Part shown: in pieces, positions 15,024 to 35,138 of the stretch | Position numbering within the stretch: position 1 is the first letter of the stretch | Layout of the letters: every line of letters begins with the position of its first letter | NCBI GenBank assembly: GCA_963792515.1 | Contig: CAWBWG010000007.1 | Location: 48,171-112,170 of the forward strand | Reading direction: 5' to 3' | Origin: an uncultured Acidobacteriota bacterium | Lineage (GTDB): Bacteria > Acidobacteriota > Terriglobia > Acidiferrales > UBA7541 | DNA length: 64,000 nt | Translations under genes and position numbers: made by a program | Notes under the pieces: generated by a model | What the model saw: only the letters and a program-made list of their open reading frames with translations | Told to the model about the DNA's origin: nothing | Database searches by the model: none

Positions 15024-15298
15024 AACCTCGCGATTGAGAGTTGCGCGAAGTGTGGTTCTGGGGCCGGACAAAGATTAAAACCGAGCCGTGCGTCTCGAGA
15101 GCAACCAACGCTGAAACTTTCGGGGGTGCCGTTCTGCGGACTACATGTCGGTACTATCCTGACCTGAAACATTGCGGGAAATCGTCAGGTGAGAACAAAG
15201 GGTGATTGCTGCGGGCCAGGTTAGGCATTCAAGCGGACATAGCCGAGGATTATCCGGGAACCTTGAGACAGGCAGCAACACGACGTTATGAAAGAGCA

Positions 15299-15562
15299 AT
15301 GGAGGCCGTCATGGGAATCGCGTTCTTGATCGTTGCCGCTGCCATCATGTTCCACCGTTCGGCTTGGGAGATATGCCTACTCCTTATCGGATACTGGAGT
15401 TTCACGCGGCTCGATCAATGGCTGGCCAAACGAACAAAACGAAAAGAGATTGATTACGAAACAGATGGGTGGGAAACAGACCCTTCTGACCCGGGGTACG
15501 AAACAAAGGGTAATCTCGCACGCGCGAAGCTCGCAGGTGGAGGGGCAAATCATTGTGACTAG
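15299..15562 (+). CDS. hypothetical small membrane protein
   Basis: ATG at 15299 within ORF 15206..15562: MEAVMGIAFLIVAAAIMF..ICLLLIGYWSF. Confidence 0.35.
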   Translation: MEAVMGIAFLIVAAAIMFHRSAWEICLLLIGYWSFTRLDQWLAKRTKRKEIDYETDGWETDPSDPGYETKGNLARAKLAGGGANHCD

Positions 15563-15921
15563 GATTGCGGAGCTACTCAGACGGACGGCGTGAGCGGCCA
15601 TCGTCGAGACTCACGCTTAAACTCGAACGAATTCGGCCAGAAGTTATAAGTTGGCTGCTGAGTGCTACGGCCAACGCTTTAGATCGCGGGTGGCTCACCG
15701 GTCGCCGGTACCCGGAGAGTCGCTGTCAACTCTTCCGCTTTTGGCCGGTAGGAACCGAGCGATTCGATAATCGCGAGCGCGGTTTTCACGTCGAGCAACA
15801 TATGTAGCGACCAGCGTGTCGAGCGCGTTCCAGACATTCCGATGGAGGCCGCAATTCGCGGGGCCTGCTAGGCGCTTCGATTCTCATTCGATCCGTCGGG
15901 ACATCGCAGTACAATCTGCTT

Positions 15922-19584: not shown

Positions 19585-20193
19585 ATGTGGGACTACGAAC
19601 GGGTGCAGTTCGAAGCGGTGGTCGCCTTACTCAGCGCGTTGCGAAGAAAAGACAAGCTGGCAATCAGCCGCGCCCGAGGCTTCGTCACGAACGCACTCGC
19701 GCTCAAGCGAGAAGGGGACAGGAGACTCGGCATTAGCCCGGCGCTAGATGATGACCTAGATTTTGGGCGGGTTCTTATTCATGTTTTTGGCCTGGAGCCG
19801 GGACAGGAGAAGGAAGCCATTGAGCGGTGGAACGGTTACCGTCACGGTCCGAAAGCGGATGCAAACCATCGGTGGCTACTATCGCAGCTAATGTCTGAAG
19901 CGCTCGATTCTGTGCGTTTGGTGCTCTGGTCGTCGGGAAAGCATCTTCGACCTGCGCTCTACTGCCCTCAGGCCAAGGCCGCTCTTTACGCGATGCTCTT
20001 GATGAAGATCGCCGCTGGGCGGGGATGGGGAGTGTGTCCGTATTGCGGTCAGTTCTTTGCTCAAAAGCGTTCCGACCAGAATTACTGCACGATTGCACAT
20101 CGTGAGGCGCATCGAGTAGCACGGTGGCGTGCAGCGAGAGTATCGCAATCGAAACAGAGAGGCGGGTCATATGGCACTCGTAAAACGCGGTAG
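19585..20193 (+). CDS. hypothetical protein with a C-terminal CPYCG..C..AH zinc-ribbon-like motif
   Basis: ATG at 19585 within ORF 19525..20193. The C-terminus reads WGVCPYCGQFFAQKRSDQNYCTIAHREAHRVARW. It overlaps the integrase start by 23 nt. Confidence 0.5.
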   Translation: MWDYERVQFEAVVALLSALRRKDKLAISRARGFVTNALALKREGDRRLGISPALDDDLDFGRVLIHVFGLEPGQEKEAIERWNGYRHGPKADANHRWLLSQLMSEALDSVRLVLWSSGKHLRPALYCPQAKAALYAMLLMKIAAGRGWGVCPYCGQFFAQKRSDQNYCTIAHREAHRVARWRAARVSQSKQRGGSYGTRKTR

Positions 20194-21400
20194 GACGTGG
20201 CACACACAATTCTACGTTAACGGTGCTCGCTACCGACAGTCGCTTCGCACAACCGACTGGCGCGAAGCGCTTCAGCGCGAGAAAGAACTGATCTCGCAGG
20301 CGAGTGTCGGGAAGCTCGCGCCGTCGAGTCAGCAGTTCGCCCGACTCGCCTTTTCCGTGGCGGCGGATCGATACATCGAAGATCGTAAGGCCTATCTGGC
20401 GCCTCGAAGCGTGCGTACAGAACAAGAGCGCCTGAAGGGTCTGCGATTATTCTTTGGTGCGACGCCGTTAACCCGCATCAGTTCGGACTCGGTTCGAGAA
20501 TATGTCGCCAAGCGCAAGAACGCGGGACTGAGCAATCGCACGGTGAATATGGAGACTGGCTGCCTTGCTCGCGTTCTAAAGAGGGCGAAACGTTGGCATC
20601 TGATCGCAGAGGATATAAAGCCGCTGCCCGAGGGACGGAGCGTGGGTAGGGCATTGACGCATGAAGAGAAAGTGAAGCTACTAAAAGCTGCTGCTCGCAA
20701 ACCAGAGTGGATGCTTGCGCGGCTTGCTGCAATCTTGGCACTGAATACCACGATGCGAGGGTGCGAGATCCGCGGACTACGATGGTGCGACGTCGATTTC
20801 ATAGAACGGACACTCACCGTGCGCCGAAGTAAAACACAGGCGGGGGAGCGCGTGATTCCGCTCAACGGCGACGGGTGGGGAGCGATTCTCGAGTTACGGG
20901 AGAGAGCAAAACAGCTTCTCGGCGTCGAGCCGCGCTCCCAGTGGTTTGTATTTCCTCATGGGGAGGGGCAAGGGCCCGTTACCCACACGAAAACGAGACC
21001 TGGGCCAAAATCGGTAACTGTGAAACCCGACCCAACCAAGCCTATGATTTCGTGGCGGACGGCATGGCGAAAAATTGCCAAGGAAGCCGGACTCCCCGGG
21101 CTGCGGTTTCATGATCTCCGGCACCACGCCGTGACAGAGCTTGCCGAGGGGCAGGCCAGCGATCAAATAATACGGTCGATTGCGGGGCACGTTTCACTTC
21201 GAATGCTAGAGCATTATTCTCATATCAGGTTGGACGCCAAGCGCAAGGCGCTTGATGCTCTCTCAGGTGGACCACCGGACTCAGTTACGACACAACTCAC
21301 GACACAAATTTCGAATCGATCGCCGCAAGCGATTGAAAAGAATGGCGGGGCCGACGGGGTTCGAACCCGCGACCTCCTGCGTGACAGGCAGGCGTTCTAA
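20171..21400 (+). CDS. tyrosine recombinase / phage-type integrase
   Basis: The ATG at 20171 gives MALVKRGRTWHTQFYVNGARYRQSL (typical integrase N-terminus). Catalytic pattern: CEIRGLRWCDVDF (Arg), LRFHDLRHHAVT (HxxR), GHVSLRMLEHYSHI (Tyr). The last 58 nt of the ORF run into tRNA-Asp on the opposite strand. Confidence 0.9.
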   Translation: MALVKRGRTWHTQFYVNGARYRQSLRTTDWREALQREKELISQASVGKLAPSSQQFARLAFSVAADRYIEDRKAYLAPRSVRTEQERLKGLRLFFGATPLTRISSDSVREYVAKRKNAGLSNRTVNMETGCLARVLKRAKRWHLIAEDIKPLPEGRSVGRALTHEEKVKLLKAAARKPEWMLARLAAILALNTTMRGCEIRGLRWCDVDFIERTLTVRRSKTQAGERVIPLNGDGWGAILELRERAKQLLGVEPRSQWFVFPHGEGQGPVTHTKTRPGPKSVTVKPDPTKPMISWRTAWRKIAKEAGLPGLRFHDLRHHAVTELAEGQASDQIIRSIAGHVSLRMLEHYSHIRLDAKRKALDALSGGPPDSVTTQLTTQISNRSPQAIEKNGGADGVRTRDLLRDRQAF

Positions 21401-21420
21401 CCAAGCTGAACTACGGCCCC
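21343..21420 (-). tRNA. tRNA-Asp (anticodon GTC)
   Basis: The reverse complement folds as GGGGCCG TA GTTC AGCTTGGTTA GAAC G CCTGC CTGTCAC GCAGG AGGTC GCGGG TTCGAAC CCCGT CGGCCCC G CCA. Confidence 0.9.
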
Positions 21421-21452: not shown

Positions 21453-21528
21453 TGGTGGGCGGTCAGCGATTTGAACGCTGGACCTTCCCGGTGTAAGCGG
21501 GATGCTCTAACCGCTGAGCTAACCGCCC
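21453..21528 (-). tRNA. tRNA-Val (anticodon TAC)
   Basis: The reverse complement folds as GGGCGGT TA GCTC AGCGGTTA GAGC A TCCCG CTTACAC CGGGA AGGTC CAGCG TTCAAAT CGCTG ACCGCCC A CCA. Confidence 0.9.
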
Positions 21529-21674: not shown

Positions 21675-23045
21675 GTGAAAGCCAGATCATATTTCGGGCT
21701 ATTGTCGCTCCTTGCGCTGCTAGCTTGGTCTCAAGCGCCGGCGCATTCCGTTTACATTTCCTGGAGCGAGGCGCAGCCGGCCCTCGCCGCTTATCAGGAT
21801 GCTTTGCCGGAGCGATTGCGAAGCGCCGCGCCGCTCGACGAATCGAAATGGGCGGCATGGGTTGCGGCCAGCGATCGCGAAGTGCGCGCGCGCCTCGATC
21901 GTGGGCAGGAAGATACTCTTAGCAATTTGCTGCGCTTTGGCGTCACCTTCACGCAGGAATACCGCATTGATGATGAATACTTGCCTAAATTTGGGCGCAG
22001 CACGCTGGTGGATTCCTTCGCCGGGCAACGCGCCGGCGATTTGGTCCGCGCGCTCGCTTCGCCGCACTCGGCGGAAGGATTCCGGGAAATGCGCGCATTT
22101 CTCGAGAAGCAGGGCTATTCGTTTGACACTCCGGCAGCGCGCCTAAAAGTAAAAAAGCATCTGCTCGAAAATCTGGCGCGGCTGCGCGACGATTTCGTGA
22201 ACGCTCATTCCGAGGCCGCCAAGGAAAATCGCTGGCAATCCTTCGAAGCGCGCGGGATTTCACTCGATACGAATCTGTGGCCCGACTATGACGTTGACGC
22301 CCATCTGCGCGCCCTGCTGCAAAACGGCTCGCTCAAGCCGGGCAGCGTGCGCCGGATTGCGATCGTCGGCCCGGGGCTTGATTTCGTAAACAAGCAGCAG
22401 GGCTATGATTTTTATCCGCCGCAGACCATCCAGCCCTTTGCGGTGCTCGATAGCCTGGTCCGTCTGAAACTTTCGGATCCTGCGTCGATCGAGATCTATA
22501 CGATGGATATCAGCTCGAGTGTGAACGTGCATATCGAGCGGGCGCTCAAAAATGCGGTCGACGGTAAATCGTACGTGCTGCAATTGCCGTGGTATCAGGC
22601 GGGCCGGTGGAGCGATGAATTCCGTGCAGCGTTCGTTTCCTATTGGCAAAATCTTGGATTGTCGATCGGCAAGCCCGTGCCGGCAATTCCGGTGCCGCAG
22701 GGCGCCGAGGGGATTGAATCTCGCGCCATAGCCGTTCCGCCCGCCATCGTTCGCCGCATTACGCCGTTGGATTTGAACATCGTCTATCAACGGATCGAGC
22801 TGGCTCCCGATCAACGCTTCGATTTGATCATCGGCACGAATGTGTTCGTCTACTATGGCGCGTTTGAGCAGTCGCTGGTGCGCGCGAATGTGGCGAGCAT
22901 GCTTAGACCCGGTGGATTTTTGCTTTCATCGGAGAAACTGGCGGATCGCATCGAGAATGGATTGGCGCCGGAGACGACCACCGAAATTCCTATGACTGGG
23001 CCGCCCGTGATGACGGACTACATTTTCGGCTATCGGCGAAAGTAA
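21675..23045 (+). CDS. secreted protein with a class I SAM-methyltransferase-like C-terminal half
   Basis: GTG start with signal-like MKARSYFGLLSLLALLAWSQAPAHS. Methyltransferase-like blocks RRIAIVGPGLDF, FDLIIGTNVFVYY and MLRPGGFLL. Confidence 0.55.
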   Translation: MKARSYFGLLSLLALLAWSQAPAHSVYISWSEAQPALAAYQDALPERLRSAAPLDESKWAAWVAASDREVRARLDRGQEDTLSNLLRFGVTFTQEYRIDDEYLPKFGRSTLVDSFAGQRAGDLVRALASPHSAEGFREMRAFLEKQGYSFDTPAARLKVKKHLLENLARLRDDFVNAHSEAAKENRWQSFEARGISLDTNLWPDYDVDAHLRALLQNGSLKPGSVRRIAIVGPGLDFVNKQQGYDFYPPQTIQPFAVLDSLVRLKLSDPASIEIYTMDISSSVNVHIERALKNAVDGKSYVLQLPWYQAGRWSDEFRAAFVSYWQNLGLSIGKPVPAIPVPQGAEGIESRAIAVPPAIVRRITPLDLNIVYQRIELAPDQRFDLIIGTNVFVYYGAFEQSLVRANVASMLRPGGFLLSSEKLADRIENGLAPETTTEIPMTGPPVMTDYIFGYRRK

Positions 23046-23069: not shown

Positions 23070-25067
23070 CTAAGCTAGATCGGATTCCCGGCGGCAGAAG
23101 CAACGAGGGCGCCGGACACCCGCAGCTATGCTGGACGGACAGTAAACTTCCGCCCCTACCGCGGGCGAGGCAACGGCTGCGTCCATGGTTGCGGCAAAGG
23201 TTGCGGCGTGGCGTGCTTTCCTGGTTACCGACGGAGTGCTCAGTGAATGTGCTTGTCCGTGGCAGGTCAGCGCGCAGGAATTCGTGGCCCGGCTATAGGA
23301 AACTGGACCGCCGTTTGGCGCGACTACGTTGACATCAAAGTTGACCAGCCGCTCGCCGGAAACAGTGGCGCTAGTCGCGCCCATTCCATGCGGAGTATGG
23401 CAAACCGAGCAGGAGAACCCATCGTTAATATGACGGGCGTGCTCGCTGAAGCTGGCGTTCGACACCACGTTGGCAAGACTGTGGCACTTGCCGCACAACG
23501 CGTACGGGCCGCTCACCGTGAGATCGGGATTCGGATTCAGATTGGTGATGAGTTGGCCTGGAGCCGTCGTCTCGCTGGCTATGTATTGCCGCTCCAGAAT
23601 GTGCGTCCACTTCGTTCCATGCGGGCCATTCGGTCCCGTGCCGCCGAATTCGCGATTGTCATCGCTGTTGTGGCAATCGGAGCAGAAAATTTGGACGCCC
23701 ATGCTGCGTCCCTGGGTCACGCCATCGAGATTCAGCATGTTGGCGAGCAAGCTGGGCTGCGGCAAAGCGCTATTGCTGACGTGCGTTACGGGATGACTCG
23801 AAGTGCTGCTGATGGCGAATTGCGGAATGACGTTGAGAATATCGCCCGAGGACACCAGCCGATTGGGCAAGTACCCGTAGATCGGATTGACAACTTTTCC
23901 CGCGCTCGTGCCATGGCAACGCAAGCAGTTGTCGTACTCGTTTACGGCGGGATACACGGTGCTCACGCCGTCTGCCGCGCTGACTCCGGCGATGCCATTC
24001 TGCGAGGGCCGAATGAGCGGCGGAGGCGTGAAACTCGTGACTTGATTGGCGGGATGGCCGTTGTGGCAATCGACGCAGGTGGCGTGACGATTGTTGTTGA
24101 GCACCACGCTTTCGGCGGCATCGTGCGTGTTCACGCCGGCGGGAAATGGGTGGCCGACCTTGGCGAATTCCGCGAACACATTGGGAATTCCGGGAGAAAT
24201 ATTCGATCCGCCGCTGTGACACGCGAGGCAGTCTTGCTCGTTCGGTGCGCGCAGCAATCGCGCGGGGCCCTGGCCGTTGTGAGGTTCATGGCAGGAGAGG
24301 CATGCGTTCTGCCCTACGTTCGAGTAGCTCCCCACTCCGGACTGCAGCGTGGTCTTATTCGCGGCGGTGGCGTGAATTCCCGTCGGCCAGCCAGCGAGAT
24401 GGTTGATCTGCCCGGTTAAAGCGCGCGTCGGATCATGACAGGCGAGGCACATCTGGCCACTCGAGCTATCGCGCACCAGAAAATTCTGAGAAATGGTGTC
24501 CTTGGCTTGCACGTGCGGGTCGTGGCAGGAAGTGCATTCGATATTTCCCTGCACCAGATGCACCGCTCCAGTGGGGTCCGCCGTTTTTCCCTGAGAAACC
24601 AGCGTCGCCGCTATTTCGACGGTATCTTTTAGCGGCAGCACCAGGCTGAACGGATGCGAGTTCTGCAGGTTCGTGCCGAACACATCGACGGCAGACATCG
24701 AACCCGTCATGGTCACGGCGCCGTACACGATGGTTTGTCCGGGTGCGACGGTTCCATCATGGCAGCTCAGGCAAAGGCTGCTATCTCCTCCGAGCGGAGG
24801 GATGGTGTTTCCGGTCTGATGATAGGTTGTGCTGGTGTAGGTCGTGTAGGTCTGCGTCGAGAAGGTTTGGTTCCAAAGCGGCGCCGGCGCGAATCCGGAA
24901 TGTGGTGCATGGCAATACGTGCAGGAACCGGGCCGCGCGCCGGTTACCGGCGACTTGCTGCCAGTGGTCAAATCGTGGACGCCGATTACATCGCCAGTCA
25001 CCTGCGCGCGCATCGCGGCTGGAGCCATCATCACCAGGGCGCACATCAGCAGGAACCGCGGCCTCAC
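23070..25067 (-). CDS. multiheme c-type cytochrome (11 CXXCH + 1 CX3CH), secreted
   Basis: Signal-like MRPRFLLMCALVMMAPAAMRAQ. Motifs counted by eye: CTYCH, CLSCH, CTSCH, CLACH, CLSCH, CLACH, CVDCH, CLRCH, CSDCH, CGKCH, CSVCH, CALTCH. The GTG start overlaps the upstream stop (GTGA at 25064-25067). Confidence 0.9.
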   Translation of the reverse strand: MRPRFLLMCALVMMAPAAMRAQVTGDVIGVHDLTTGSKSPVTGARPGSCTYCHAPHSGFAPAPLWNQTFSTQTYTTYTSTTYHQTGNTIPPLGGDSSLCLSCHDGTVAPGQTIVYGAVTMTGSMSAVDVFGTNLQNSHPFSLVLPLKDTVEIAATLVSQGKTADPTGAVHLVQGNIECTSCHDPHVQAKDTISQNFLVRDSSSGQMCLACHDPTRALTGQINHLAGWPTGIHATAANKTTLQSGVGSYSNVGQNACLSCHEPHNGQGPARLLRAPNEQDCLACHSGGSNISPGIPNVFAEFAKVGHPFPAGVNTHDAAESVVLNNNRHATCVDCHNGHPANQVTSFTPPPLIRPSQNGIAGVSAADGVSTVYPAVNEYDNCLRCHGTSAGKVVNPIYGYLPNRLVSSGDILNVIPQFAISSTSSHPVTHVSNSALPQPSLLANMLNLDGVTQGRSMGVQIFCSDCHNSDDNREFGGTGPNGPHGTKWTHILERQYIASETTAPGQLITNLNPNPDLTVSGPYALCGKCHSLANVVSNASFSEHARHINDGFSCSVCHTPHGMGATSATVSGERLVNFDVNVVAPNGGPVSYSRATNSCALTCHGQAHSLSTPSVTRKARHAATFAATMDAAVASPAVGAEVYCPSSIAAGVRRPRCFCRRESDLA

Positions 25068-26134
25068 TGATTTCCTCCCGCCGATTGTTTCGGCAAACCG
25101 TAATAGTGAAATACTTGCACGCGGCGGTTCAGGGAATCGACCACGAAAACGCGATCGTTGTGATCGATAAATAATCCGGACGGCAATTGGAATTGCGCGA
25201 CGGCTGTGCCGCGTTGCCCGAAGTAGTAAAGAAGCTGGCCTTTGCGGTTGAAAACCTGCACGGCGCCCCGAAGCCCGTCCACCACGTAGAGATCGCCCTC
25301 GGAATCAATGGCGATTCCCTTGGGACGGAACATCGCGGCGTTATCGTCTCCGATGTGGCCAATGGAGTATTGAAATGCTCCCGTGCGATCGAGCACCTGC
25401 ACGCGGAAATTCATCGCATCGACCACAAATAAGTCGCCGCCATCCAGCCGAAGCTCGGTGGGGAAGTTGAACTCCAGTTCGCCGGATCCTTCTTTGCCAA
25501 TGGTCTGCAGCACATTGCCGGCTAGATCCATTACGAAGATTTTGTCGCGCAATGTGTCGGTGACATAAATGCGGTTGGCTGCCGAGTCCACGGCGATTCC
25601 GGTGGGGCGCTTGAAGAAGCCTTCGCCGTATTTCAAGCTTCCGATCACCCGGCTGAATTTGCCGCTGGGCTCAAATACAAAAACTTTCCCGCCTTCCGAA
25701 TCGGTGACGTAGATGTTGTCCTGAGCATCGACGGCCACGCATTGCGGCGCGAGCAGATGGTCTTTGCCTTTATCGCGGCGGGAAATGAATTTGTATTTCT
25801 GCTGGGCGAAATCGAAGATGTGGATCCCGTAGGCGCCCGGGTCGGTCACAATCACGCGCCCGTGCGAATCCGCGACGATGCCGTAGGGGCGAATCAACGA
25901 ATGAAATTCCGGCTCGCCCGCCACCACATCCAGCACTTTGTTCCAGAAGCCGCGCTTGGGCTTGACGTCGCGCTCCCAAGTGAAATTTCGTTCGTAGCTC
26001 AGCTTGCGCCCGCCCTCGAGCAGCAAATCGGGAACCGGTTGGTCTTCCGGCTTTTTCTTGTCCTTCCGCGAGCCCCAGGCAGGAATCAGCAGCAAAAGGG
26101 CAAACACGGTCGCGGTCACCGCGCGTAGTTTCAA
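25064..26134 (-). CDS. NHL-repeat six-bladed beta-propeller protein
   Basis: Repeated blocks PYGIVADSHGRVIVTD, PQCVAVDAQDNIYVTD, PTGIAVDSAANRIYVTD, FPTELRLDGGDLFVVD, PKGIAIDSEGDLYVVD, PSGLFIDHNDRVFVVD. A TTG start at 26134 (MKLRAVTATVFALLLLIPAWG) is preferred, because the track ORF extension to 26764 overlaps the barrel gene. The start is uncertain. Confidence 0.8.
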   Translation of the reverse strand: MKLRAVTATVFALLLLIPAWGSRKDKKKPEDQPVPDLLLEGGRKLSYERNFTWERDVKPKRGFWNKVLDVVAGEPEFHSLIRPYGIVADSHGRVIVTDPGAYGIHIFDFAQQKYKFISRRDKGKDHLLAPQCVAVDAQDNIYVTDSEGGKVFVFEPSGKFSRVIGSLKYGEGFFKRPTGIAVDSAANRIYVTDTLRDKIFVMDLAGNVLQTIGKEGSGELEFNFPTELRLDGGDLFVVDAMNFRVQVLDRTGAFQYSIGHIGDDNAAMFRPKGIAIDSEGDLYVVDGLRGAVQVFNRKGQLLYYFGQRGTAVAQFQLPSGLFIDHNDRVFVVDSLNRRVQVFHYYGLPKQSAGGNQ

Positions 26135-26148
26135 TCGCGATGCGCGGA

Positions 26149-27990
26149 TCAGAAAAATTTGAACCACCGTGAAACTCCGAAGTAATAAGTAGAAACGTTG
26201 GCAGCGGGAAGCGGCGAGGCGCTGAAGCTTTGCTCCAGCCGGGCATAGCCACCCGTCAGGTACACTTTGCGGAACTGATATTGGGTGTAAACGGTGAGCT
26301 GCAAGTTCTTGTTCGAGGATGCCTGCGTGTCTCCGCCTGTATCGCTGGTGGACTTCGAGAAGCTCGCGCCGATCGTAAGTCTTCGCACCGGCGAAGCCCC
26401 CAGCCCGAAAGAATAACTCCTGCCGCCGTACAGAATGATGAGGCTCGAAGGTATAACCGGCGTAGGCACCGGCGTGACGACCAGCCCGGCTCCGGTCTGC
26501 ACTGCATTGCCATTGGCGGCGGCGTAGCTTCCCGTTAGGCTGGCCCAGCGTCCGAAGGTGAATCCGGTGGAATAGCTCTGACTGCGGCTTTCGGTTCCTG
26601 CTTGCTGCGTCAATGCAGTGCGTGATCCGGACGCGCTGGCGCTCCAATACACCGAACCGAAACGGCGTCTTACATTGCCAGAATAGTTGTAGTAACCGGT
26701 CGTGTAGGTCACCAGCAACGTCTGCGCGTTCTGCGCGTAGCTGAACGACGCGCCAAAAAACCATTTATGGATGCGCCGCGAGAAGTTAACCGTGCCGATC
26801 AGCCCGATGGTATTGACGTCCATGTTGTCGAGCCGCGTGTCATTCACGGTTCCGGACACGTTGAACGAACCACCCAGCAACGGCCGCGTGTAGAGAATAC
26901 TGCCGCCCGCGGAAGTTGCGCCCACGCTTTCGCCGAGGAAGGATTGATCGCGGCGCTCGACATCGCCGAGCAATTGCAGGTTCGGCAAAATCGCGTAACT
27001 GGCCACGCCCAACGCATCGAAGGAATCGGATTTCTCGTTACCGTTAGGAGGCAGTGGAACGCCCCCGCTCGAGGAAGCCGCTTCGAACAGCGTTCCGCCC
27101 AGATTATCCGAGTAATTCAGCCCCACTGACAGATGCAGCTTGTTGCTGGGCTGGATTCCGGCGTTTGCGGTGATGGAATCAACGGTGCCATTGAAGCTGA
27201 AGCCCTGATCGTCGGTGCTAAAAGACGAGCGCGTGAAAGTGGCGGAAAACCCACCGCGCATTGGCAGAGCGTGCGAAATATTGAATCCGAATCCATCCGT
27301 GCCCGTATCCGAGTTTACCGATTGATCGGTAGCAGTGAACAATTGCGGGATCACCGAATTGGACGTTCCATACTGAAAGAACGCGCCCATGGCGTATCCG
27401 TGCGTCAAATATCCCGAATGAATATTGATGGAATCAAAAGTCGTGCTTCCCGTGTCATTCGCGCCGTAAACTGAATAATCCGTGCTTCCTCTTTGAAATC
27501 CAAAAGTGAGGCTGGGCATATCCGGAACGTTTTCCGACCAATTGACGCCGAATGAATCGCTGTTTCCGTGCGTCGTGTAACTGGGCAGCCCCGGCAGCGC
27601 GAAATTCCCTTCGCTGTTATACGACCTCGAATAATTGACGGAACCCGGATAATTGCTGCCATTGAAAATTCCCGCGGCGAAATTCACACCACTGGCGTCG
27701 GAGATGGATTGATAATTGGAATCGGCGCGCGACTGATTCAGGTACGGCGTCACAGTGAACGATAGAAAATTGGGATCGTAAAAGTATCCTGCGAGAGTCG
27801 CCGTCCCGCCGAAATTCAAGCTGTGCTCCGAGGCCGTCTGATTCCCGTAGTCCGCGGAATATCCTCCCGAAACTACCCCGGTCAGGTTCATATTGACGTC
27901 GCCGGCTTGCACCTGCGCGGCCGCCGGGCGAGCCCAGAAAAGCAGCAGCCCCGCGGCTAGGCAATACGCGACTCGAGAAATCCGAAGCAA
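26149..27990 (-). CDS. outer-membrane beta-barrel-like protein (porin-like partner of the cytochromes)
   Basis: 613 aa. Signal peptide MLRISRVAYCLAAGLLLFWARPAAAQ. The sequence is Gly/Ser/Thr/Tyr/Asn-rich with alternating patterns, and ends ..YYFGVSRWFKFF (aromatic terminal residue). Confidence 0.7.
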   Translation of the reverse strand: MLRISRVAYCLAAGLLLFWARPAAAQVQAGDVNMNLTGVVSGGYSADYGNQTASEHSLNFGGTATLAGYFYDPNFLSFTVTPYLNQSRADSNYQSISDASGVNFAAGIFNGSNYPGSVNYSRSYNSEGNFALPGLPSYTTHGNSDSFGVNWSENVPDMPSLTFGFQRGSTDYSVYGANDTGSTTFDSINIHSGYLTHGYAMGAFFQYGTSNSVIPQLFTATDQSVNSDTGTDGFGFNISHALPMRGGFSATFTRSSFSTDDQGFSFNGTVDSITANAGIQPSNKLHLSVGLNYSDNLGGTLFEAASSSGGVPLPPNGNEKSDSFDALGVASYAILPNLQLLGDVERRDQSFLGESVGATSAGGSILYTRPLLGGSFNVSGTVNDTRLDNMDVNTIGLIGTVNFSRRIHKWFFGASFSYAQNAQTLLVTYTTGYYNYSGNVRRRFGSVYWSASASGSRTALTQQAGTESRSQSYSTGFTFGRWASLTGSYAAANGNAVQTGAGLVVTPVPTPVIPSSLIILYGGRSYSFGLGASPVRRLTIGASFSKSTSDTGGDTQASSNKNLQLTVYTQYQFRKVYLTGGYARLEQSFSASPLPAANVSTYYFGVSRWFKFF

Positions 27991-28005
27991 GTCCCCCTGC
28001 TCTCT

Positions 28006-29001
28006 TTACAGCACTTCGACCTTGGCCTTGCGCCGCAGGGCCTGATCCAGCGCGGCACGGAGCTGGTTGGTCTTCTTGCTTTCCAGCTCCTTGCGCAACT
28101 CGTTTTTTACGTCGGCAAATTTCGCCTTGCCCGCCGTTACGTGCTGGTTCAGCCGCACGATGGTGAAGGCTTGCTCGATTTGAATGATGCTGGTGATCTG
28201 CCCTGGCTGCATGGAGAGTAAGGCATGCACTACGGCGGGATCGAGCTTGGCACGCTCGACGAGCTTGTGGTCGCCCATCATTACCCGGTAGTCATCGTCC
28301 GATATTTTTTCGGCGAGCATTCCGAATTCTTCGTAGCTTTTGGTGGCCTTGGCCTGCCGCAACGCCTCTTCGGCGCGCCGGCGCCCTTCTTTCAATTGGT
28401 CGGCAGTCTGGTTCTTGGGCGGCAGAACCGAGATGGTCTGAAACGCGAAGGATTCCGGGTGCTCGAATCGCGCGGGGTTTTTGTCGTAGTAGGATCGCAG
28501 TTCCGCGTCCGACACGGTCGATTTCTGTTGCACCTCAATTTTCAGCAAGTCATCGATCAACAGGGAGCGGCGCACCCGCTGACGCACCAGTTCTTCCGAG
28601 TCGTGGAATTCCGTGTGGACGAATTCTTGATACAGAGCTGGACTGGCGAACTGGGCCCGGAAGTCCGCTTCGGCCTTTTGCAATTTCGAGGCGGGCACTG
28701 TCATTCCGCGGCGCAAAGCTTCCTGATATACCAGCTCCTCGAAAATAATCATTTTCATGGCGCCGTCGCGGATGCTTTCTTCCATTTCTTTGGGGAACCC
28801 GCCATTGTGCTGGCGCGCGTAGGGAAAGATCGCGAACATCTCGCGCAACAGGTCGCCATCGGTGAGAACGGTGCCGTTTACCCGAGCCACGGGCCGGCCC
28901 GTCGCGTGTATCTGCACGCTCTGCGACGGTGCTGAGTCTTGAGCAGACGCTGTCCCGAGCGCCGCTAGCACGAGCACGCCGACACCCAATTGAAAGTTCA
29001 T
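28006..29001 (-). CDS. periplasmic peptidyl-prolyl cis-trans isomerase (PpiC/parvulin, SurA/PrsA-like)
   Basis: Signal MNFQLGVGVLVLAALGTASAQ. SurA-N-like ARVNGTVLTDGDLLREM, and a rotamase-like block FEHPESFAFQTISVL..EFGMLAEKISDD..GDHKLVERAKLDPAV. Confidence 0.75.
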   Translation of the reverse strand: MNFQLGVGVLVLAALGTASAQDSAPSQSVQIHATGRPVARVNGTVLTDGDLLREMFAIFPYARQHNGGFPKEMEESIRDGAMKMIIFEELVYQEALRRGMTVPASKLQKAEADFRAQFASPALYQEFVHTEFHDSEELVRQRVRRSLLIDDLLKIEVQQKSTVSDAELRSYYDKNPARFEHPESFAFQTISVLPPKNQTADQLKEGRRRAEEALRQAKATKSYEEFGMLAEKISDDDYRVMMGDHKLVERAKLDPAVVHALLSMQPGQITSIIQIEQAFTIVRLNQHVTAGKAKFADVKNELRKELESKKTNQLRAALDQALRRKAKVEVL

Positions 29002-29067
29002 AGCGTTTTCAGGCTACTGACTGAGAAAACAAGAGGAGAGATTTCGCTCTCCCCTCGTAGGTTGAAG

Positions 29068-29946
29068 TTAGAAAGTGGTCCCCGCCGTACCGTTGTTCGA
29101 CTCGTTCGCTTCGCCGCCATGGCACTGACGGCAAAATTGCGCGTTCTGGTTCGAACCAGCGGTGGTTGAGGCCGGGTTATAAGGCGCCAGGATGAAAAAC
29201 ATCGTCTGGTAATAACCCGACGGCAGTCCAGTCTTCGGTCCGTTGGTGACCTTCACCACGTTCATCAGGTGCTGGTTGTGGCAGGTCGTGCAGACGACGA
29301 CTGGCGAAGTGTTGTTGTAGTTCCCAGGTGCGACAAAAAAGCCATAGTTCGTGATGAACTTGGCGAAATTGGTGCCCGAGGGAACGTTAATCGCTCCGGC
29401 GGTAATGGTGCAATCCCAGTTGTACTGTCCGCCGCAACCAATGATGGCGTTCAGTCCGACTGGATGGTCGTTGAGGTACCCCAGACTATCGGCGCCCAGT
29501 AACGTAGGAATTTCGTTAAAGGTACCGTAAGTGGATGGGAGCGTCTCATAGACCTGGTTCTTCATCATCGCGCCCGTGGCATAGTTGCCGTCATGGCAAC
29601 TGAGACAGGTCAACAGCCCCAAGACATCGGGGGTGGTGGCCGTTAGGCTGGCCGGCAGAGTCTCGACGTAAAACGTGCCGGCTCGTGACTGGCCAGTGTT
29701 GATGACCTTGTTGTACAGATTGCCGACATCCTGGCCCCAGAGCGCAACCGCTCCGGCATTTGGGTCGCCGGATTTGTTGGCTCCGTTGCCCGATGCGCCG
29801 CTATGCGGAGCATGGCAAGCCGTGCAACCACGGCCATAGTTAAGGTGGGCGCCGAGGACGTCCGTCGACGGCGAAAAGCCGGACTGGGCTGCAGCAATTC
29901 CTGCACTGCCCAGCACGACGATTAGGGTTAACAATACTTTCTTCAT
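29068..29946 (-). CDS. tetraheme c-type cytochrome (292 aa), secreted
   Basis: ATG at 29946 preceded by GGGAGG. Signal MKKVLLTLIVVLGSAGIAAAQ. Motifs CTACH, CLSCH, CTTCH, CRQCH. The N-terminal module GCTACHAPHSG..ALWGQ resembles SCTYCHAPHSG..PLWNQ of the 665-aa cytochrome. Confidence 0.85.
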   Translation of the reverse strand: MKKVLLTLIVVLGSAGIAAAQSGFSPSTDVLGAHLNYGRGCTACHAPHSGASGNGANKSGDPNAGAVALWGQDVGNLYNKVINTGQSRAGTFYVETLPASLTATTPDVLGLLTCLSCHDGNYATGAMMKNQVYETLPSTYGTFNEIPTLLGADSLGYLNDHPVGLNAIIGCGGQYNWDCTITAGAINVPSGTNFAKFITNYGFFVAPGNYNNTSPVVVCTTCHNQHLMNVVKVTNGPKTGLPSGYYQTMFFILAPYNPASTTAGSNQNAQFCRQCHGGEANESNNGTAGTTF

Positions 29947-30083
29947 GAACAAACCTCCCAATCGTGCTGCAGCACTTCCATTGCTACTGAAACTGCTGCT
30001 ACGAAAGCCGGACAAGTAGGCCTGCTCTTGTTCGTCTCTCTTCTTGGTTGTCACCCGACCAACCAAAAACTCTTGCCCGCCGG

Positions 30084-31358
30084 TTACTGCGCGGTGGAAC
30101 TCTGTGCCTTGGCGGACGGGTCAGCCTTCGGCGACGCCGAATCGGCCGGCTTTGGCGCGGCCTGTTGCGGCGACGCTTCGCGGCGCGCTTTCTCCGCCGC
30201 GGCTTCCGCATCCGTCACGTACTGAAACATCTGCATCCGGCCCGGATATTGTTCGCTGGTGAAGACGTGGTTCTGTTTGTCGATGGCGATGCCCACCAGC
30301 GCTCCGAATTGTCCGGGAAAATTTCCGTGCCCGCCGATCCAGGTGAGCAACTGCCCCTCACGGTTGAAGACCTGCACGCGATCCTGATACGCGTCCGCGA
30401 TCCAGATGTGCCCGTCGGAATCGATGGCGATTCCTTTCGGCCGCGCCAGGTATCCCGGTCCATCGCCGTGCTGTCCGAACATGCCGATGAACTTCCCGTC
30501 GGCATCGAACATTTCCACGCGGTTGTTCATCGTGTCGGTCACATACACATTGCGGTCTTTGTCCAACGCCACATTCGATGGCGCGCCAAAATCTCCCGGC
30601 GTGGTGAGCCAATGGTTTTTGCCCGCGGTGCCGATTTTGCGCACCAGCTTCAAAGTGTCTGCGTCGAACACGATCACCTGGTCTTGCTGCGTATCCACTA
30701 CGTACAGATAGCGGTTCTCCGTGTCGATCGCCAGGCCCACGGGATCCACGAGTCCTTCGTCGATCTTGTTGATCACTTGATGCTTTCCATCAAACACCAG
30801 CACGCGGTGCAGCTTGCCATCCGAGACGAACAGGCGATCGTCATCGTCAATTGCCAGTCCGTTGACCAACCCGAAATGCGCTTCATAGCCGTTGCGGATC
30901 AGTTGCACGTCGCGCGTATCGGTATTAAATATGAAAACGGCTCCCACTTTCTGATCGGCGACGTACACCAGACCCTTGGAATCGATGGCAATCCCGTAGG
31001 GCGAGATCATTTGGAACGGAAACGTCTTCACATCGAATTTCTCGGTCTGTGGCTGCTCGCCTGCTAAACGGTCCATCCAACTCTGCTTTTTCTTCTTAGG
31101 TGCGGGACTCGTGTCGATCTTTTCGCCCGCGAAGTAATTCAGGTAACGCACGCGCGCGATCGATGGAGGGCTGGGCCACACCAGCATCGATAAATCGATC
31201 TGCACTTTCGGCTTGGCCGCCTGGTCGGCCGCCGTATCGGCCTTCTTCTTCTTTTGGTTATCGGCAAAATTGGCGAACGGTAAAGCCAGTACTACCGCCA
31301 GCAGCCCCGCGATGGCTGCTCCGTTTCGGCACGCCGCTCGTATCGCAATCCTTTTCAT
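30084..31358 (-). CDS. NHL-repeat beta-propeller protein with a Lys/Pro/Ala-rich C-terminal tail
   Basis: Anchor or signal AIAGLLAVVLALPFANFA. Blades PYGIAIDSKGLVYVAD, VNGLAIDDDDRLFVSD, PVGLAIDTENRYLYVVD, PSNVALDKDRNVYVTD, PKGIAIDSDGHIWIAD, LVGIAIDKQNHVF. Confidence 0.85.
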   Translation of the reverse strand: MKRIAIRAACRNGAAIAGLLAVVLALPFANFADNQKKKKADTAADQAAKPKVQIDLSMLVWPSPPSIARVRYLNYFAGEKIDTSPAPKKKKQSWMDRLAGEQPQTEKFDVKTFPFQMISPYGIAIDSKGLVYVADQKVGAVFIFNTDTRDVQLIRNGYEAHFGLVNGLAIDDDDRLFVSDGKLHRVLVFDGKHQVINKIDEGLVDPVGLAIDTENRYLYVVDTQQDQVIVFDADTLKLVRKIGTAGKNHWLTTPGDFGAPSNVALDKDRNVYVTDTMNNRVEMFDADGKFIGMFGQHGDGPGYLARPKGIAIDSDGHIWIADAYQDRVQVFNREGQLLTWIGGHGNFPGQFGALVGIAIDKQNHVFTSEQYPGRMQMFQYVTDAEAAAEKARREASPQQAAPKPADSASPKADPSAKAQSSTAQ

Positions 31359-31372
31359 TGCTTCACTCCAAA

Positions 31373-32812
31373 TTATCGGCTCATGTCGATCCGGTTTCTG
31401 TGACAGCCGTCACAGAAGGCCATATTGTTTTCCTGGTCTTTCACCAGTAGTCCGGCGTGCGCCGAGGAGTGCGGCTGGTGGCAGCTCATGCAACTCAGCG
31501 AGAAACGCACTTTGGTGATGTCTTTCGGATCGGGCACATCCGAAACCGGATGCCCGTCGACGGGATGGCCAAATCCGAATCGCAGCGGCAGGATCGGTAC
31601 GCGGTTCTTCTTGTAATAGTCATCCGGAAGCTTCACGGCCCCGTTGAAAATGGTCAGCACGTGCTCCGCTTCCAGCTTCTGGGGCACCGAATCGGGGCCA
31701 TGGCACTCGAGGCAGAGCGCATCGCCTTGCGCGCGCAGTAGATGTTCGCTGTCGTTGCCGTGAGGGTCGTGACAGGTCGCGCAGCCCTGCTGGTATGCCG
31801 GCTGATGCAACACGCGCTTTTTGCCCTCGTCGGCTTGCGTGATATGGCAGCCCAGACACACGTTCACGGCATCCGGCTTCGGAAAGCCGGGCGACGCTCC
31901 GGCATGCGGGTTGTGGCAGTCCGTGCAATCCCCCTGCGCCCCGGGATGCTGCACTTTTGCCGTTTCGATCTGCTTGGCTTTGTCCGCGTGGCACGTGACG
32001 CACAGTTCCTTGGCCGACGCCTGCGTCAACACCACTTTCCCGTCTTTAGCCGGCTGGTGGCAAAGCTCGCATTGCTTTTCCGCGAACGGCGGGTGAACGA
32101 ATGCCTGCATCAGCTTGGGCCGCTCGGACTCATGTGGGCTATGGCAGGCCAGGCAATCAGCGCTCTCGAACGGCTGATTCTGATGGGCCTTAGCCAGATT
32201 GGCGTCTTTCACGTCATGGCAATCGACGCACAGCGCTGGAACCGTTTTGGTGAGATGAAATTTAAATTCGAGGTTGAGAGGGTCGCCCGTTTTGTGCGTG
32301 ACGTGGCAGGTATCGCAGCCCAGATCGAGTGCGGCATGGCGGCTGCCGGCCGCGGAAGGGTGGGCGCCCGTGGCGTGGCAATCGAGGCAGAGGTTTTCTT
32401 TGGCGCCGCCCGACATGGGCTTCAGCAGTTGAAACTTGTTGTCGGAGGAATGCGGATCATGGCATTTCAGGCAGTCGCGGACTGCTGGCGGATGCACCGC
32501 CCCTTTAATTTGCGTTGCATCCTTATCAACATGGCAGGTCAGACAGAGCCCGTAAACGGTGGTGGTGATCAATTTCACGCGCGTTACGTCGCGATTGACG
32601 CGCACCTCGTGGCACGAAGTGCATCCTAGCGCCATGGCGGAATGTACGGATTTGCCCTTGGTCTGATCAACATGGCATTCCAGGCATTTTGCTGACGGCG
32701 TGTTCTTCTCGAGCGGAACGGGATGAACATCGGCGCGTGCCGTCGCGGCGCCGCAGAGCGCGAGGAAGGCATACAACAACGCTCTCAGTCCGCCGGATGC
32801 ACACTGGCGCAC
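31373..32812 (-). CDS. 16-heme c-type cytochrome (c7/c3-type repeats), periplasmic or secreted
   Basis: I counted 16 CXXCH motifs, from CLECH through to CDGCH. A GTG at 32812 gives MRQCASGGLRALLYAFLALCGAATARA (signal-like). The track ORF extension to 33034 has no signal and looks non-coding. Confidence 0.85.
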   Translation of the reverse strand: MRQCASGGLRALLYAFLALCGAATARADVHPVPLEKNTPSAKCLECHVDQTKGKSVHSAMALGCTSCHEVRVNRDVTRVKLITTTVYGLCLTCHVDKDATQIKGAVHPPAVRDCLKCHDPHSSDNKFQLLKPMSGGAKENLCLDCHATGAHPSAAGSRHAALDLGCDTCHVTHKTGDPLNLEFKFHLTKTVPALCVDCHDVKDANLAKAHQNQPFESADCLACHSPHESERPKLMQAFVHPPFAEKQCELCHQPAKDGKVVLTQASAKELCVTCHADKAKQIETAKVQHPGAQGDCTDCHNPHAGASPGFPKPDAVNVCLGCHITQADEGKKRVLHQPAYQQGCATCHDPHGNDSEHLLRAQGDALCLECHGPDSVPQKLEAEHVLTIFNGAVKLPDDYYKKNRVPILPLRFGFGHPVDGHPVSDVPDPKDITKVRFSLSCMSCHQPHSSAHAGLLVKDQENNMAFCDGCHRNRIDMSR

Positions 32813-33266: not shown

Positions 33267-33405
33267 AAATCCCACGAAATTCTGTATCAGGCCTGTTAAC
33301 GCAACGCCTTGCTGGCGCGTCTAGCTGCTAGTACGCGAGCATCCCATGCCGGCAAGCCTAGGAAGCCGAGTTGACATTCGCGCGGGAATCGTGGGATTAC
33401 CGGGT

Positions 33406-33984
33406 ATGAGCGATTCGCACGCGCGCGCAGCCGAGCCGCCATCGGACGACGCGATGCTGGTGGAAGCGGCGCGCCGCGGCGATCGCAGCGCCTATGGCCG
33501 TCTCTACGATCGCTATGCGCACATGGTTCACGGGATTCTGCTCGCGCGCGTGCCGCCCAACGAAGTCGACGACCTGACTCAGGATGTGTTTCTGAAAGCC
33601 ATGCCGCGTCTCGGCTCGTTGCGCGAGGCGGCGCGCTTCGGTGCCTGGCTGGCGGCGATCGCTCGCAATCGCGCCAATGATTTCTTCCGGCGGGCGAAGC
33701 CGACTGCGGATTTGAGCGAATCGCTGGTAGTCGAAAAAATCGAAGACCGCGCCGCTAGCAGCGCCCAAATTGCGGAGGCGTCAGCGATTCTGGAAGCCAT
33801 CCGCACGCTGCCCGACGCGTATCGCGAGACGCTAATTTTGCGGCTGGTCGAAGGCATGACCGGCCCCGAAATTGCCGCGCGCACCGGCCTGGCGCCCGGC
33901 TCGGTGCGCGTGAATCTGCATCGCGGGATGCAGCAATTGCGCGAGAAACTCGGTGTCCGTTCGTCACATGCCGCGGCTCTCTAG
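33406..33984 (+). CDS. ECF-type RNA polymerase sigma-70 family factor
   Basis: From the ATG at 33406: ..LVEAARRGDRSAYGRLYDRYAHMVHGILLARVPPNEVDDLTQDVFLKAM (region 2) and ..YRETLILRLVEGMTGPEIAARTGLAPGSVRVNLHRGMQQLR (region 4). Confidence 0.85.
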   Translation: MSDSHARAAEPPSDDAMLVEAARRGDRSAYGRLYDRYAHMVHGILLARVPPNEVDDLTQDVFLKAMPRLGSLREAARFGAWLAAIARNRANDFFRRAKPTADLSESLVVEKIEDRAASSAQIAEASAILEAIRTLPDAYRETLILRLVEGMTGPEIAARTGLAPGSVRVNLHRGMQQLREKLGVRSSHAAAL

Positions 33985-34064
33985 ATGCTTTGCCCGGCAA
34001 TCCCGGACGAAATGAAAAAGCCGTGCGATGCCTGAGTAGGGAATTGGTGCCAGAAGGACAACTT

Positions 34065-35138
34065 ATGAATGATGATTATCTCTGGGATGGCTCAGGTGAG
34101 TCGGATCCCGAAATCCAAAAACTCGAGAGCACGCTGGGACGCTTCCGTCACAATCTTTCAGCGCCGGATTTTCACAATCTGAACGCAGCGACGCAGTCTT
34201 CTCCGCTGCGCCGGCGATTCCGTTTCAGTTTCGCAGTTGCGTCCGCATGTCTCGCAACGGCCGCAGCACTCACGGTAGCGGCTGTGCAGTACGAGAATTA
34301 TTTGCACCGGATCTCGTTGAGCGAGCCCGCCTGGCGCGTCGCAACGCAAGCCGGAATGCCACGGATTGGTTCAAACGGAATCGGCATCGATGGAAAAGCG
34401 GCATCCTTGCGCATTGGAGAAACTCTCGAGACCGATAGCAACTCGCGCGCGTCAATCGTAGACGGTGCGACAGGAGACATCCAGGTCGATCCAGACACGC
34501 GCGTACGCGCCGTCGAATCGCGCTCTGGCACCAAGCGGCTCGCTCTCGACCGCGGCACGATTCACGCGCAAATCTGGGCCCCCGCAGGCCGCTTCGTCGT
34601 CGACACGCCCTCAGCCGTCGCCGTTGATCTCGGCTGCGTCTACACTCTCCACGTAGACGATTCCGGCGCGGGCCTGCTGCAAACTTCCTTCGGCTGGGTC
34701 GGCTTCAAACTCGACGGGCACGAGTCGTTCATTCCGACGGGCGCGGCCTGCGCCACGCATCCGAACTCAGGCCCCGGCACACCGTATTTCGAAGATTCAT
34801 CGCAGAAATTCCGAGAAGCGCTAACTCAATTCGATTCCAGCAGCCCCGCACCAGCCGAACGAGAAGCCGCGCTAAGTGTTGTCCTCGCGGCAGCCCGCAA
34901 ACGCGACGCATTCACCCTATGGCATTTGCTCTCGCGCGTGGACGAATCCGATCGAACTCGCGTCTACGACCGGCTAGCATCTCTCGTTCCTCCTCCGCGC
35001 GAAGTCACCGGCGATGGCATCCTGCGCCTCGATCGCCCCATGCTCGATCGCTGGTGGGACCAGTTGGGTCTCGGCGACATAAAACTCTGGCGCAATTGGG
35101 AGCGCAATTGGCCGGAGGCGTCTCGCGCAGCCAAATAA
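34065..35138 (+). CDS. anti-sigma factor, FecR-like, single-pass membrane protein
   Basis: ATG at 34065 (MNDDYLWDGSGESDPEIQKLE). TM segment FSFAVASACLATAAALTVAAV. FecR-like block LRIGETLETDSNSRASIVDGATGDIQVDPDTRV..GTIHAQIWAPAGRFVVDTPSAVAVDLGCVY. Confidence 0.7.
   Translation: MNDDYLWDGSGESDPEIQKLESTLGRFRHNLSAPDFHNLNAATQSSPLRRRFRFSFAVASACLATAAALTVAAVQYENYLHRISLSEPAWRVATQAGMPRIGSNGIGIDGKAASLRIGETLETDSNSRASIVDGATGDIQVDPDTRVRAVESRSGTKRLALDRGTIHAQIWAPAGRFVVDTPSAVAVDLGCVYTLHVDDSGAGLLQTSFGWVGFKLDGHESFIPTGAACATHPNSGPGTPYFEDSSQKFREALTQFDSSSPAPAEREAALSVVLAAARKRDAFTLWHLLSRVDESDRTRVYDRLASLVPPPREVTGDGILRLDRPMLDRWWDQLGLGDIKLWRNWERNWPEASRAAK

Follow-up and report, generated by a model that had tools for sequence, protein, structure and literature searches.

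What does a run of seven genes for multihaem cytochromes, beta-propellers, a chaperone and a predicted outer-membrane barrel do in an uncultured acidobacterium: does it carry electrons across the outer membrane and, if so, by what kind of structure and in which direction? The genes lie between positions 23070 and 32812 of a 64-kb stretch of contig CAWBWG010000007.1 (henceforth referred to as ‘the window’; coordinates are window positions unless otherwise indicated) and are all on the minus strand; we label them g1 to g7. A first-pass annotation, made from the letters of the DNA, had described seven co-oriented open reading frames (ORFs) with 32 haem motifs and read them as an extracellular electron transfer (EET) module, either a porin-cytochrome conduit or a cytochrome-filament assembly locus. 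The ORFs were found exactly where described, each with a stop codon and an ATG, GTG or TTG start; the start of g1 at 32812 is one option inside a longer ORF reaching 33034 and yields a plausible signal peptide. The recount of haem sites gave the same total (16 CXXCH in g1, 4 in g3, and 11 CXXCH plus one CALTCH, a CX3CH motif, in g7), against a rough chance expectation, from typical Cys and His frequencies, of about 0.01 CXXCH motifs per 1,436 residues. Pfam and NCBIfam agreed with the original family calls (Paired_CXXCH on g1, g3 and g7, NHL on g2 and g6, SurA_N and Rotamase_2 on g4), all seven products have signal-peptide-like N-termini as judged from their sequences, and a lipobox, sought in all seven, was found in none. 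Overall, the homologies described below identify a real, conserved and ecologically relevant EET locus that is not categorically new but a divergent omcE-type variant, in which the barrel has been replaced and further parts have been added.

The barrel gene g5 belongs to a family present in 383 species-level genomes, and the comparisons of related loci were made on the best 80 of these by tblastn of the seven proteins against each locus. All 80 are metagenome-assembled genomes (MAGs) of Terriglobia from soil and peat, and identical or near-identical proteins are labelled Candidatus Acidoferrales, in agreement with the acidobacterial origin proposed at first reading. The order g3-g4-g5-g6-g7 is colinear in 72 of the 80 loci, with g4 between g3 and g5 in 76, whereas the g1-g2 pair is placed variably: it precedes the core in 48 loci, follows it in seven, is inverted in one and is absent within 10 kb from 24, some of which are incomplete. 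The seven-gene locus is thus a five-gene core (g3-g7) plus a movable g1-g2 module. Within the core, g5 and g6 are separated by 14 nt and g6 and g7 by -4 nt; the GTGA overlap at 25064-25067, already noted in the first-pass annotation, is the norm for the family (median g6/g7 spacing of -4 nt in 69 loci). Haem motif counts are kept in relatives, with 16 sites in 51 of 55 g1 proteins, four in 77 of 77 g3 proteins and 11 plus the CX3CH in 67 of 71 g7 proteins, where the cysteines and histidine of the CX3CH are 94–96% conserved. Identity across the family is about 70% for g3 versus about 50% for the g5 barrel.

This conservation bears on an explanation that dispenses with extracellular transfer, in which the cytochromes form a periplasmic redox or detoxification module and the outer-membrane protein and chaperone are adjacent by chance. 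Multihaem cytochromes do also serve periplasmic reductases, weak matches to NrfB, NrfH and octahaem nitrite reductase were obtained, and the location of the products is predicted from sequence. However, five genes held colinear across about 50% protein divergence speak against chance adjacency, a catalytic partner is not present, and the only strong homologies are to components of omcE clusters and of Mtr systems. The concern, voiced at first reading, that the cytochromes might all be periplasmic partners of known reductases was not borne out: neither a respiratory reductase partner nor any electron-transfer gene besides the cluster is encoded within the window, and g3 and g7 are homologous to the extracellular cytochrome OmcE. 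We regard a purely periplasmic module as very improbable and, more broadly, a role unrelated to EET as unlikely.

The first gene of the core, g3 (29068..29946), encodes a 292-aa tetrahaem cytochrome with four CXXCH motifs and exactly eight histidines, all eight of which are invariant in 78 sequences and arranged as in OmcE (H-x-L, CxxCHxPH, CxSCHDG, NDHP, CxxCHxxH, CxxCH); a non-haem pair, Cys171/Cys179, is also invariant. A phmmer search of g3 against the Protein Data Bank (PDB) matched nothing, and the homology with OmcE is accordingly visible chiefly at the profile level: BLASTP of g3 against OmcE gave E 6e-4, and hhalign of the g3 family against the OmcE family profile gave a probability of 99.0% and E 9e-18 over 204 columns. 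The conserved signature reported for OmcE homologues is four CXXCH plus four further histidines (bioRxiv 2025.10.22.684050), and g3, with four CXXCH and four further invariant histidines, carries it. On this evidence, g3 is a homologue of the filament cytochrome OmcE with the size of an OmcE subunit, which makes it a candidate for an abundant extracellular, possibly filament-forming, subunit; that it polymerises, we infer. The C-terminus of g3 (29068-29130; ...CHGGEANESNNGTAGTTF) is nearly invariant and ends in Phe, which is unusual for a small cytochrome. This tail resembles a C-terminal recognition motif and could be recognised by the SurA-like product of g4 or by the barrel. Five loci (L033, L039, L048, L060 and L063), of a clade without g1-g2 nearby, contain a second, g3-sized tetrahaem gene (about 294–331 aa, 4 CXXCH) on the minus strand at about 14800–15900 of the locus, convergent just after g7; the second tetrahaem of L066 is about 60% identical to g3, which recalls the omcS/omcT duplication.

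Between g3 and g4 lies the best terminator-like site of the region (29023..29056, minus strand), a hairpin with arms GAGGGGAGA and TCTCTCCTC whose 9-bp GC-rich stem is followed by a T-rich tail (29056-29033). An equivalent hairpin occurs 6–32 nt past the g3 stop in 74 of 76 loci, compared to 0–25% of loci for the other six genes. One stem pair changes from A-U to G-C in 15 of 51 sequences, and RNAalifold on a MAFFT alignment of the hairpins recovered only a 6-bp consensus with one covarying pair; since the hairpins are out of register in the alignment, this covariation is weak and the presence count is the stronger evidence. The gap that precedes g3 has a median length of 429 nt. In fimbrial and pilin operons, a subunit required in large excess is usually encoded by a structural gene that has promoter space and a terminator to itself within the assembly cluster, and the conserved terminator by analogy suggests that g3 is made in excess. 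A canonical terminator hairpin also follows omcE 17–19 nt past its stop, ahead of the barrel gene, in 4/4 loci examined, although hairpins at other genes of the omcE clusters make the signal less specific there.

The last gene of the core, g7 (23070..25067), encodes a 665-aa cytochrome with 12 haem sites, whose residues 8-212 match the entire OmcE filament subunit 7TFS (E 2.8e-12). This four-haem N-terminal module (henceforth referred to as the ‘N-module’; residues ~1-215, window ~24423-25067) aligned by family profile with the OmcE family at a probability of 99.8% and E 5e-28, with all four haem sites covered, and matched Geobacter OmcE itself at E 3e-16; by these measures it is an OmcE homologue. 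The other 450 residues carry eight more haems and contain an MtrC/MtrF II-IV domain (PF22113, 48 bits) as well as a middle part weakly similar to OcwA (6QVM, E 0.002); the OmcA/MtrC-family decahaem model TIGR03507 was not matched, and PF22113 (domain II/IV) was the only match of MtrC type. A reading of g7 as three tandem OmcE-like modules was rejected as weakly supported, the middle part resembling the N-module at 95.8% over 90 columns and the C-terminal part being dissimilar. Conserved histidines number 30 for 12 haems in g7 and 34 for 16 haems in g1, and reveal no imbalance of donors and acceptors. The last ~35 residues of g7 (23070-23180) are absent from all relatives, which stop 20–35 residues earlier and have a short basic, Pro-rich tail.

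To place these homologies in their genomic setting, the OmcE sequence was rebuilt from the alignment of g7 with 7TFS and led to the Geobacter sulfurreducens protein and its locus (GSU0615-GSU0619 region). The genes there run purHDE, ppcA, resB and ccsB, then two cytochrome genes (9-haem followed by 8-haem), the gene of an NHL lipoprotein, omcE, the gene of a 752-aa barrel without Pfam match, and glycosyltransferase genes. The same core recurs in three further omcE loci, and none of these has a peptidyl-prolyl isomerase (PPIase). The omcE clusters of G. sulfurreducens and Desulfuromonas soudanensis have in common with the window an OmcE-family tetrahaem with four CXXCH and four distal histidines, a homologous NHL propeller, paired-CXXCH multihaem cytochromes homologous to g1, a gene for a large outer-membrane barrel downstream of the OmcE-type gene, and a terminator hairpin directly 3′ of the latter. 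The order cytochrome(s)-NHL-OmcE-barrel is likewise common to the window, to G. sulfurreducens and to the three further loci, and the synteny with a known nanowire cluster that had been envisaged at first reading is therefore present. According to the Bond, Wang and Hochbaum groups (bioRxiv 2025.10.22.684050), a minimal omcE cluster always contains OmcE, a large barrel and two each of multihaem cytochromes and propeller lipoproteins. The Terriglobia locus has the corresponding parts, with propellers that lack a lipobox, plus a PPIase, which counts in favour of an omcE-type reading.

The remaining components support the same comparison to different degrees. The first propeller gene, g2 (30084..31358), encodes a six-bladed NHL beta-propeller that is exported, contains a Lys-rich linker and has no lipobox (NHL E 1e-25, plus DUF5128) and is 27% identical to the NHL protein of the Geobacter omcE cluster (E 2e-36); g6 (25064..26134), a second exported NHL propeller translationally coupled to g7 (NHL E 3e-27), is 35% identical to the same protein (E 2e-52), and g2 and g6 are 33% identical to one another. 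The exported 16-haem cytochrome g1 (31373..32812), built of paired-CXXCH repeats (Paired_CXXCH_1 E 4e-64), matches the two multihaem cytochromes of the Geobacter cluster at E about 1e-21 to 1e-23. Its N-terminal half is best matched by the 9-haem protein (E 7e-17) and its C-terminal half by the 8-haem protein (E 2e-23); since the halves match adjacent Geobacter genes (L081 6163-8282) in gene order, a fusion or split between the lineages is suggested, a reading made uncertain by the repeated paired-CXXCH units. Thus, two Geobacter cytochromes correspond to one 16-haem g1 in the window, and of the two multihaem partners found here g1 is homologous to both Geobacter proteins whereas g7 is a second multihaem of a different type, namely another OmcE-like protein, this one with an eight-haem extension.

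Other differences from the Geobacter clusters are equally clear. A SurA-like PPIase gene stands between the OmcE-type gene and the barrel gene, and a second NHL gene and g7 are appended; the barrel measures 613 aa as opposed to about 750 aa in Geobacter and has no detectable homology to it; the propellers are not lipoproteins; glycosyltransferase genes are missing and the setting is not that of purHDE-resB-ccsB; and the phylum, Acidobacteriota, lies outside the five listed for OmcE clusters. The PPIase gene, g4 (28006..29001), encodes an exported SurA-like chaperone with one parvulin (PpiC) domain (SurA_N_2, SurA_N_3, Rotamase_2 and Rotamase), and its best solved relative is Escherichia coli SurA (E 3e-8, nearly full length). 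Judged by these similarities, g1, g2, g6, g3 and the N-module of g7 are homologous, and not merely analogous, to omcE-cluster components; what has been kept between phyla is thus the OmcE module, the propeller and the multihaem partner, the barrel having been replaced.

The barrel gene itself, g5 (26149..27990), encodes a 613-aa protein that ends in RWFKFF, as first noted, and gave no Pfam or NCBIfam match at E <= 0.01, the MtrB/PioB family (MtrB_PioB) included. It has 621 close database relatives, none carrying a name, and its family comprises 647 clusters at 50% identity in a profile search of 1.84 billion representative proteins. An AF2 model built on a 37-sequence alignment (pLDDT 71) shows a signal helix followed by 28 beta strands, and a Foldseek search with it against PDB returned MtrB (6R2Q_B) at the top (E 6e-12, TM 0.51), ahead of 22-strand TonB-dependent receptors. 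The predicted strands, the MtrB fold match and the C-terminal FKFF together indicate that g5 is an outer-membrane barrel which, on the model, is no narrower than the barrel around MtrA, and hence wide enough for a cytochrome, a point on which the original proposal had depended. One metagenome protein of 1018 aa (P0428) consists of a g5-family barrel with two AMIN domains fused at its N-terminus. The AMIN domain is found in PilQ secretins and in AmiC, and this fusion hints that the barrel is connected with the periplasm or cell wall in the way a secretion channel is.

The likeness to MtrB brings in the principal rival explanation, a non-polymerising conduit of the Mtr/Pcc type in which g5 would be the porin, g1 its insert, g6 a scaffold, g7 a monomeric 12-haem surface reductase and g3 a small periplasmic or surface shuttle, with no filament at all. 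A barrel that sheathes a periplasmic wire and touches a surface cytochrome is a likely common principle of the window, Shewanella MtrCAB (6R2Q) and Geobacter Pcc/Ext, and besides the fold match of g5, g1 has MtrA-like stretches (residues 261-375 match MtrA, 6R2Q_A, at E 2.8e-18, a similarity that is local only) and g7 has the MtrC/MtrF II-IV domain and the OcwA-like stretch described above. By a rough estimate the 12 haems of a single g7 chain could span ~10 nm unpolymerised, the tight coupling of g5, g6 and g7 is consistent with one conduit, and most OmcE-like tetrahaems in databases are not known to polymerise; the need for filters on gene context has been noted (bioRxiv 2025.10.22.684050). 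Several features nevertheless set the locus apart from Mtr and Pcc systems. The barrel is predicted to have 28 strands as opposed to 26, and both it and g1 fall outside the corresponding sequence families; g1 scored 168.8 bits against the DmsE/MtrA family TIGR03508, below the cut-off of 192.2, and with 16 haems is not a member of that decahaem family. Both surface cytochromes are of the OmcE family and not of the MtrC/OmcA type, propellers and a chaperone are additional, and gene content and order match the omcE cluster. A conduit without filament also leaves the separate, terminator-bounded g3 unit and the dedicated SurA-like gene unexplained. We consider it a substantial possibility, albeit one that leans to the doubtful side.

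The explanation that we prefer, if tentatively and with a confidence that stops a little below even, is that the locus corresponds, in acidobacteria, to the omcE cluster of Geobacter/Desulfuromonas and passes respiratory electrons across the outer membrane onto an OmcE-type surface haem chain, with g3 probably polymerising. In such an apparatus g1 would take electrons in the periplasm and thread its 16 haems into the barrel g5, as MtrA does in MtrB, and the barrel would anchor or export both OmcE-family cytochromes. As its own, highly expressed transcription unit, g3 would supply the repeating extracellular subunit, stacked head to tail like OmcE, nanowires of the omcE type being polymers in which a histidine of one subunit is a haem ligand in the next, whereas g7 would be a low-copy adaptor whose OmcE-like docking module and eight haems either join the g3 chain to the barrel or form a reactive tip. 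The SurA-like g4 and the propellers g2 and g6 would act as periplasmic folding or assembly factors, as has been proposed for OscH and OscD of the omcS cluster. The more specific proposal that Terriglobia build OmcE-type nanowires from g3, with g7, an adaptor unfound in Geobacter, as the base or tip of the filament, appears to us rather unlikely, though well worth stating.

A number of observations weigh against the omcE-type reading. The sequence of g5 gave no BLASTP match to the 752-aa barrel of the Geobacter omcE cluster, and two profiles of the g5 family (Neff 2.3 and 4.9, the second widened by the search of 1.84 billion representative proteins), run with hhalign against that barrel, returned probabilities of 0.1–0.2%; as the target was a single sequence, a very distant relationship is conceivable, but on this evidence the two barrels are analogous at best. 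The propellers g2 and g6 do not have the lipobox that the Geobacter NHL protein has. About 15 full-length loci are without g1-g2 within 10 kb, so that the periplasmic electron input is not fixed. The profile alignment of g3 with OmcE ends before haem 4, where g3 has ~45 extra residues, and the AF2 model of g3, built on 32 sequences of 70–90% identity, was unusable (pLDDT 38.7). Eight histidines for four haems fit a monomer as well as a polymer, and the terminator downstream of g3 may be no more than the end of an operon. Finally, the physiological need for OmcS and OmcE filaments in Geobacter is itself disputed (PMC11077965).

Two further systems illuminate the added parts of the omcE-type locus. 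The first-pass annotation had pointed to an omcS-companion cluster carrying a propeller and a PPIase, and such a cluster does exist: the osc cluster of G. sulfurreducens encodes the PPIase chaperone OscH, the propeller OscD, the channel OscEFG and multihaem cytochromes (Shen et al. 2025, Cell Chem Biol 32:239, as relayed in PMC13194489). As far as that account goes, the common plan is a filament cytochrome gene accompanied by a PPIase chaperone, a propeller, a channel and multihaem cytochromes, with three channel proteins there as opposed to one barrel here. An OmcS-like hexahaem is absent from the window, where haem counts are 16, 4 and 12; OmcS structures (e.g. 6EF8) were not among the PDB sequence matches of g1, g3 or g7; and the likeness of g4 to OscH exists at the domain level only (SurA_N plus parvulin). 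Deng et al. 2018 (PMC5815863) describe co-expression of multihaem cytochromes with NHL propellers in Desulfovibrio ferrophilus IS5, the propellers having a proposed role in stabilising a cytochrome complex at the outer membrane. The cytochrome families differ from those of the window, the likeness is drawn from the description of those clusters, and the portion of the description consulted mentions neither a barrel nor a PPIase (PMC5815863).

The D. ferrophilus clusters also bear on the direction of flow, since the parts we have described could also run inward, as an oxidation or electron-uptake system with partner cells, Fe(II) or reduced humics as the electron source, which has been proposed for those NHL-cytochrome clusters. 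There, NHL and multihaem clusters are induced by electron-donor starvation and linked to electron uptake (PMC5815863); no sequence feature sets the direction of flow, and the carriers of the present locus inhabit peat with redox-cycling organic matter. On the other hand, the window shows no connection to any particular oxidase or reductase of the inner membrane, and OmcE, the characterised homologue, has been linked to Fe(III)- and Mn(IV)-oxide reduction (PMC9473688). An inward-running system, which would differ from the preferred one in direction and not in apparatus, seems to us improbable.

Part of the locus has been described before. A preprint of May 2026 (Fiorito et al., bioRxiv 10.64898/2026.05.27.727921) reports ‘Acidobacteriota EET1: Porin-NHL-CytC cluster’ from 49 MAGs of peat, with transcription to a depth of several metres, and this cluster is g5-g6-g7: it consists of the same three genes in the same order and in the same class, Terriglobia, and its structural matches agree with ours (MtrB 6R2Q for the porin, OmcE 7TFS for the cytochrome), the identification resting on gene order and these matches. 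The loci related to the window include SPRUCE and Stordalen MAGs, which are the datasets of the near-identical matches in the preprint. EET1 is read there as an Mtr-like conduit, with multimer models that resemble Mtr conduits, a result that favours the filament-free alternative, and its core is reported as transcribed throughout deep peat (bioRxiv 10.64898/2026.05.27.727921). The claim of the first-pass annotation that such systems are largely uncharacterised in Acidobacteriota thus no longer holds for g5-g6-g7, which have been described bioinformatically. The preprint has a three-gene core where we find a seven-gene (5 + 2) unit; its EET1 text omits g3, the SurA-like g4, g1-g2, the terminator and the parallel to the omcE and osc nanowire clusters; and it names Terriglobales and UBA7540 as hosts, whereas the window's closest relatives carry the label Acidoferrales. 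What is new here is the seven-gene unit, g3 as an OmcE-size subunit and the conserved terminator after g3, together with homology, as detected by sequence searches, to five omcE-cluster components.

The surroundings of the cluster were considered for further parts of the system. An extracytoplasmic function (ECF) sigma factor and a FecR-like anti-sigma factor are encoded at 33346-35138 (plus strand), divergent from g1. Apart from one 35% sigma-factor match in L046, this pair is not beside the cluster in related loci and is therefore probably not its dedicated regulator. On the other side, a 456-aa exported protein without Pfam or NCBIfam family (21675-23045, plus strand) is convergent with g7; in the closest relatives (81–85% identity) its gene adjoins g7, and several distant loci have it no more than 10 kb away. 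A phage-type integrase gene (20129-21400, plus strand) adjoins tRNA-Asp (21343-21420) and tRNA-Val (21453-21528), and AAA_25, HNH and RHS-repeat genes extend left of it to about window position 1; this region looks like an integrated island that ends at the tRNAs, ~1.5 kb from the cytochrome cluster. None of these neighbours (the sigma/FecR pair, the 456-aa protein, the integrase island) is a conserved part of the system, and each was rejected as a component of it.

Terriglobia dominate acidic soils and peat and are among the most abundant soil and peat bacteria. In these habitats, respiratory electron acceptors limit methane production, and the identity of these acceptors is an open question. 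The value of the present finding is tempered by the fact that the three-gene core is already in the 2026 preprint and that the evidence added here is computational. Still, a cytochrome system of the outer surface that is conserved, expressed and encoded in 383 species-level genomes makes a strong candidate for electron disposal there, and its tie to the characterised omcE cluster predicts an abundant g3, possible filaments, a g7 adaptor and a SurA-like assembly factor. OmcE homologues with cluster context have been reported from five phyla, Acidobacteriota not among them, and the question of what forms the tip or stopper of such filaments has been raised, with no candidate encoded in omcE operons (bioRxiv 2025.10.22.684050). 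If g3 does form nanowires, Acidobacteriota would be a sixth phylum with OmcE-type clusters; if g7 does serve as their adaptor, it would offer a candidate answer to how filaments start, end and connect to the barrel. The Terriglobia clusters are in any case a natural comparison set for the essential parts of nanowire clusters.

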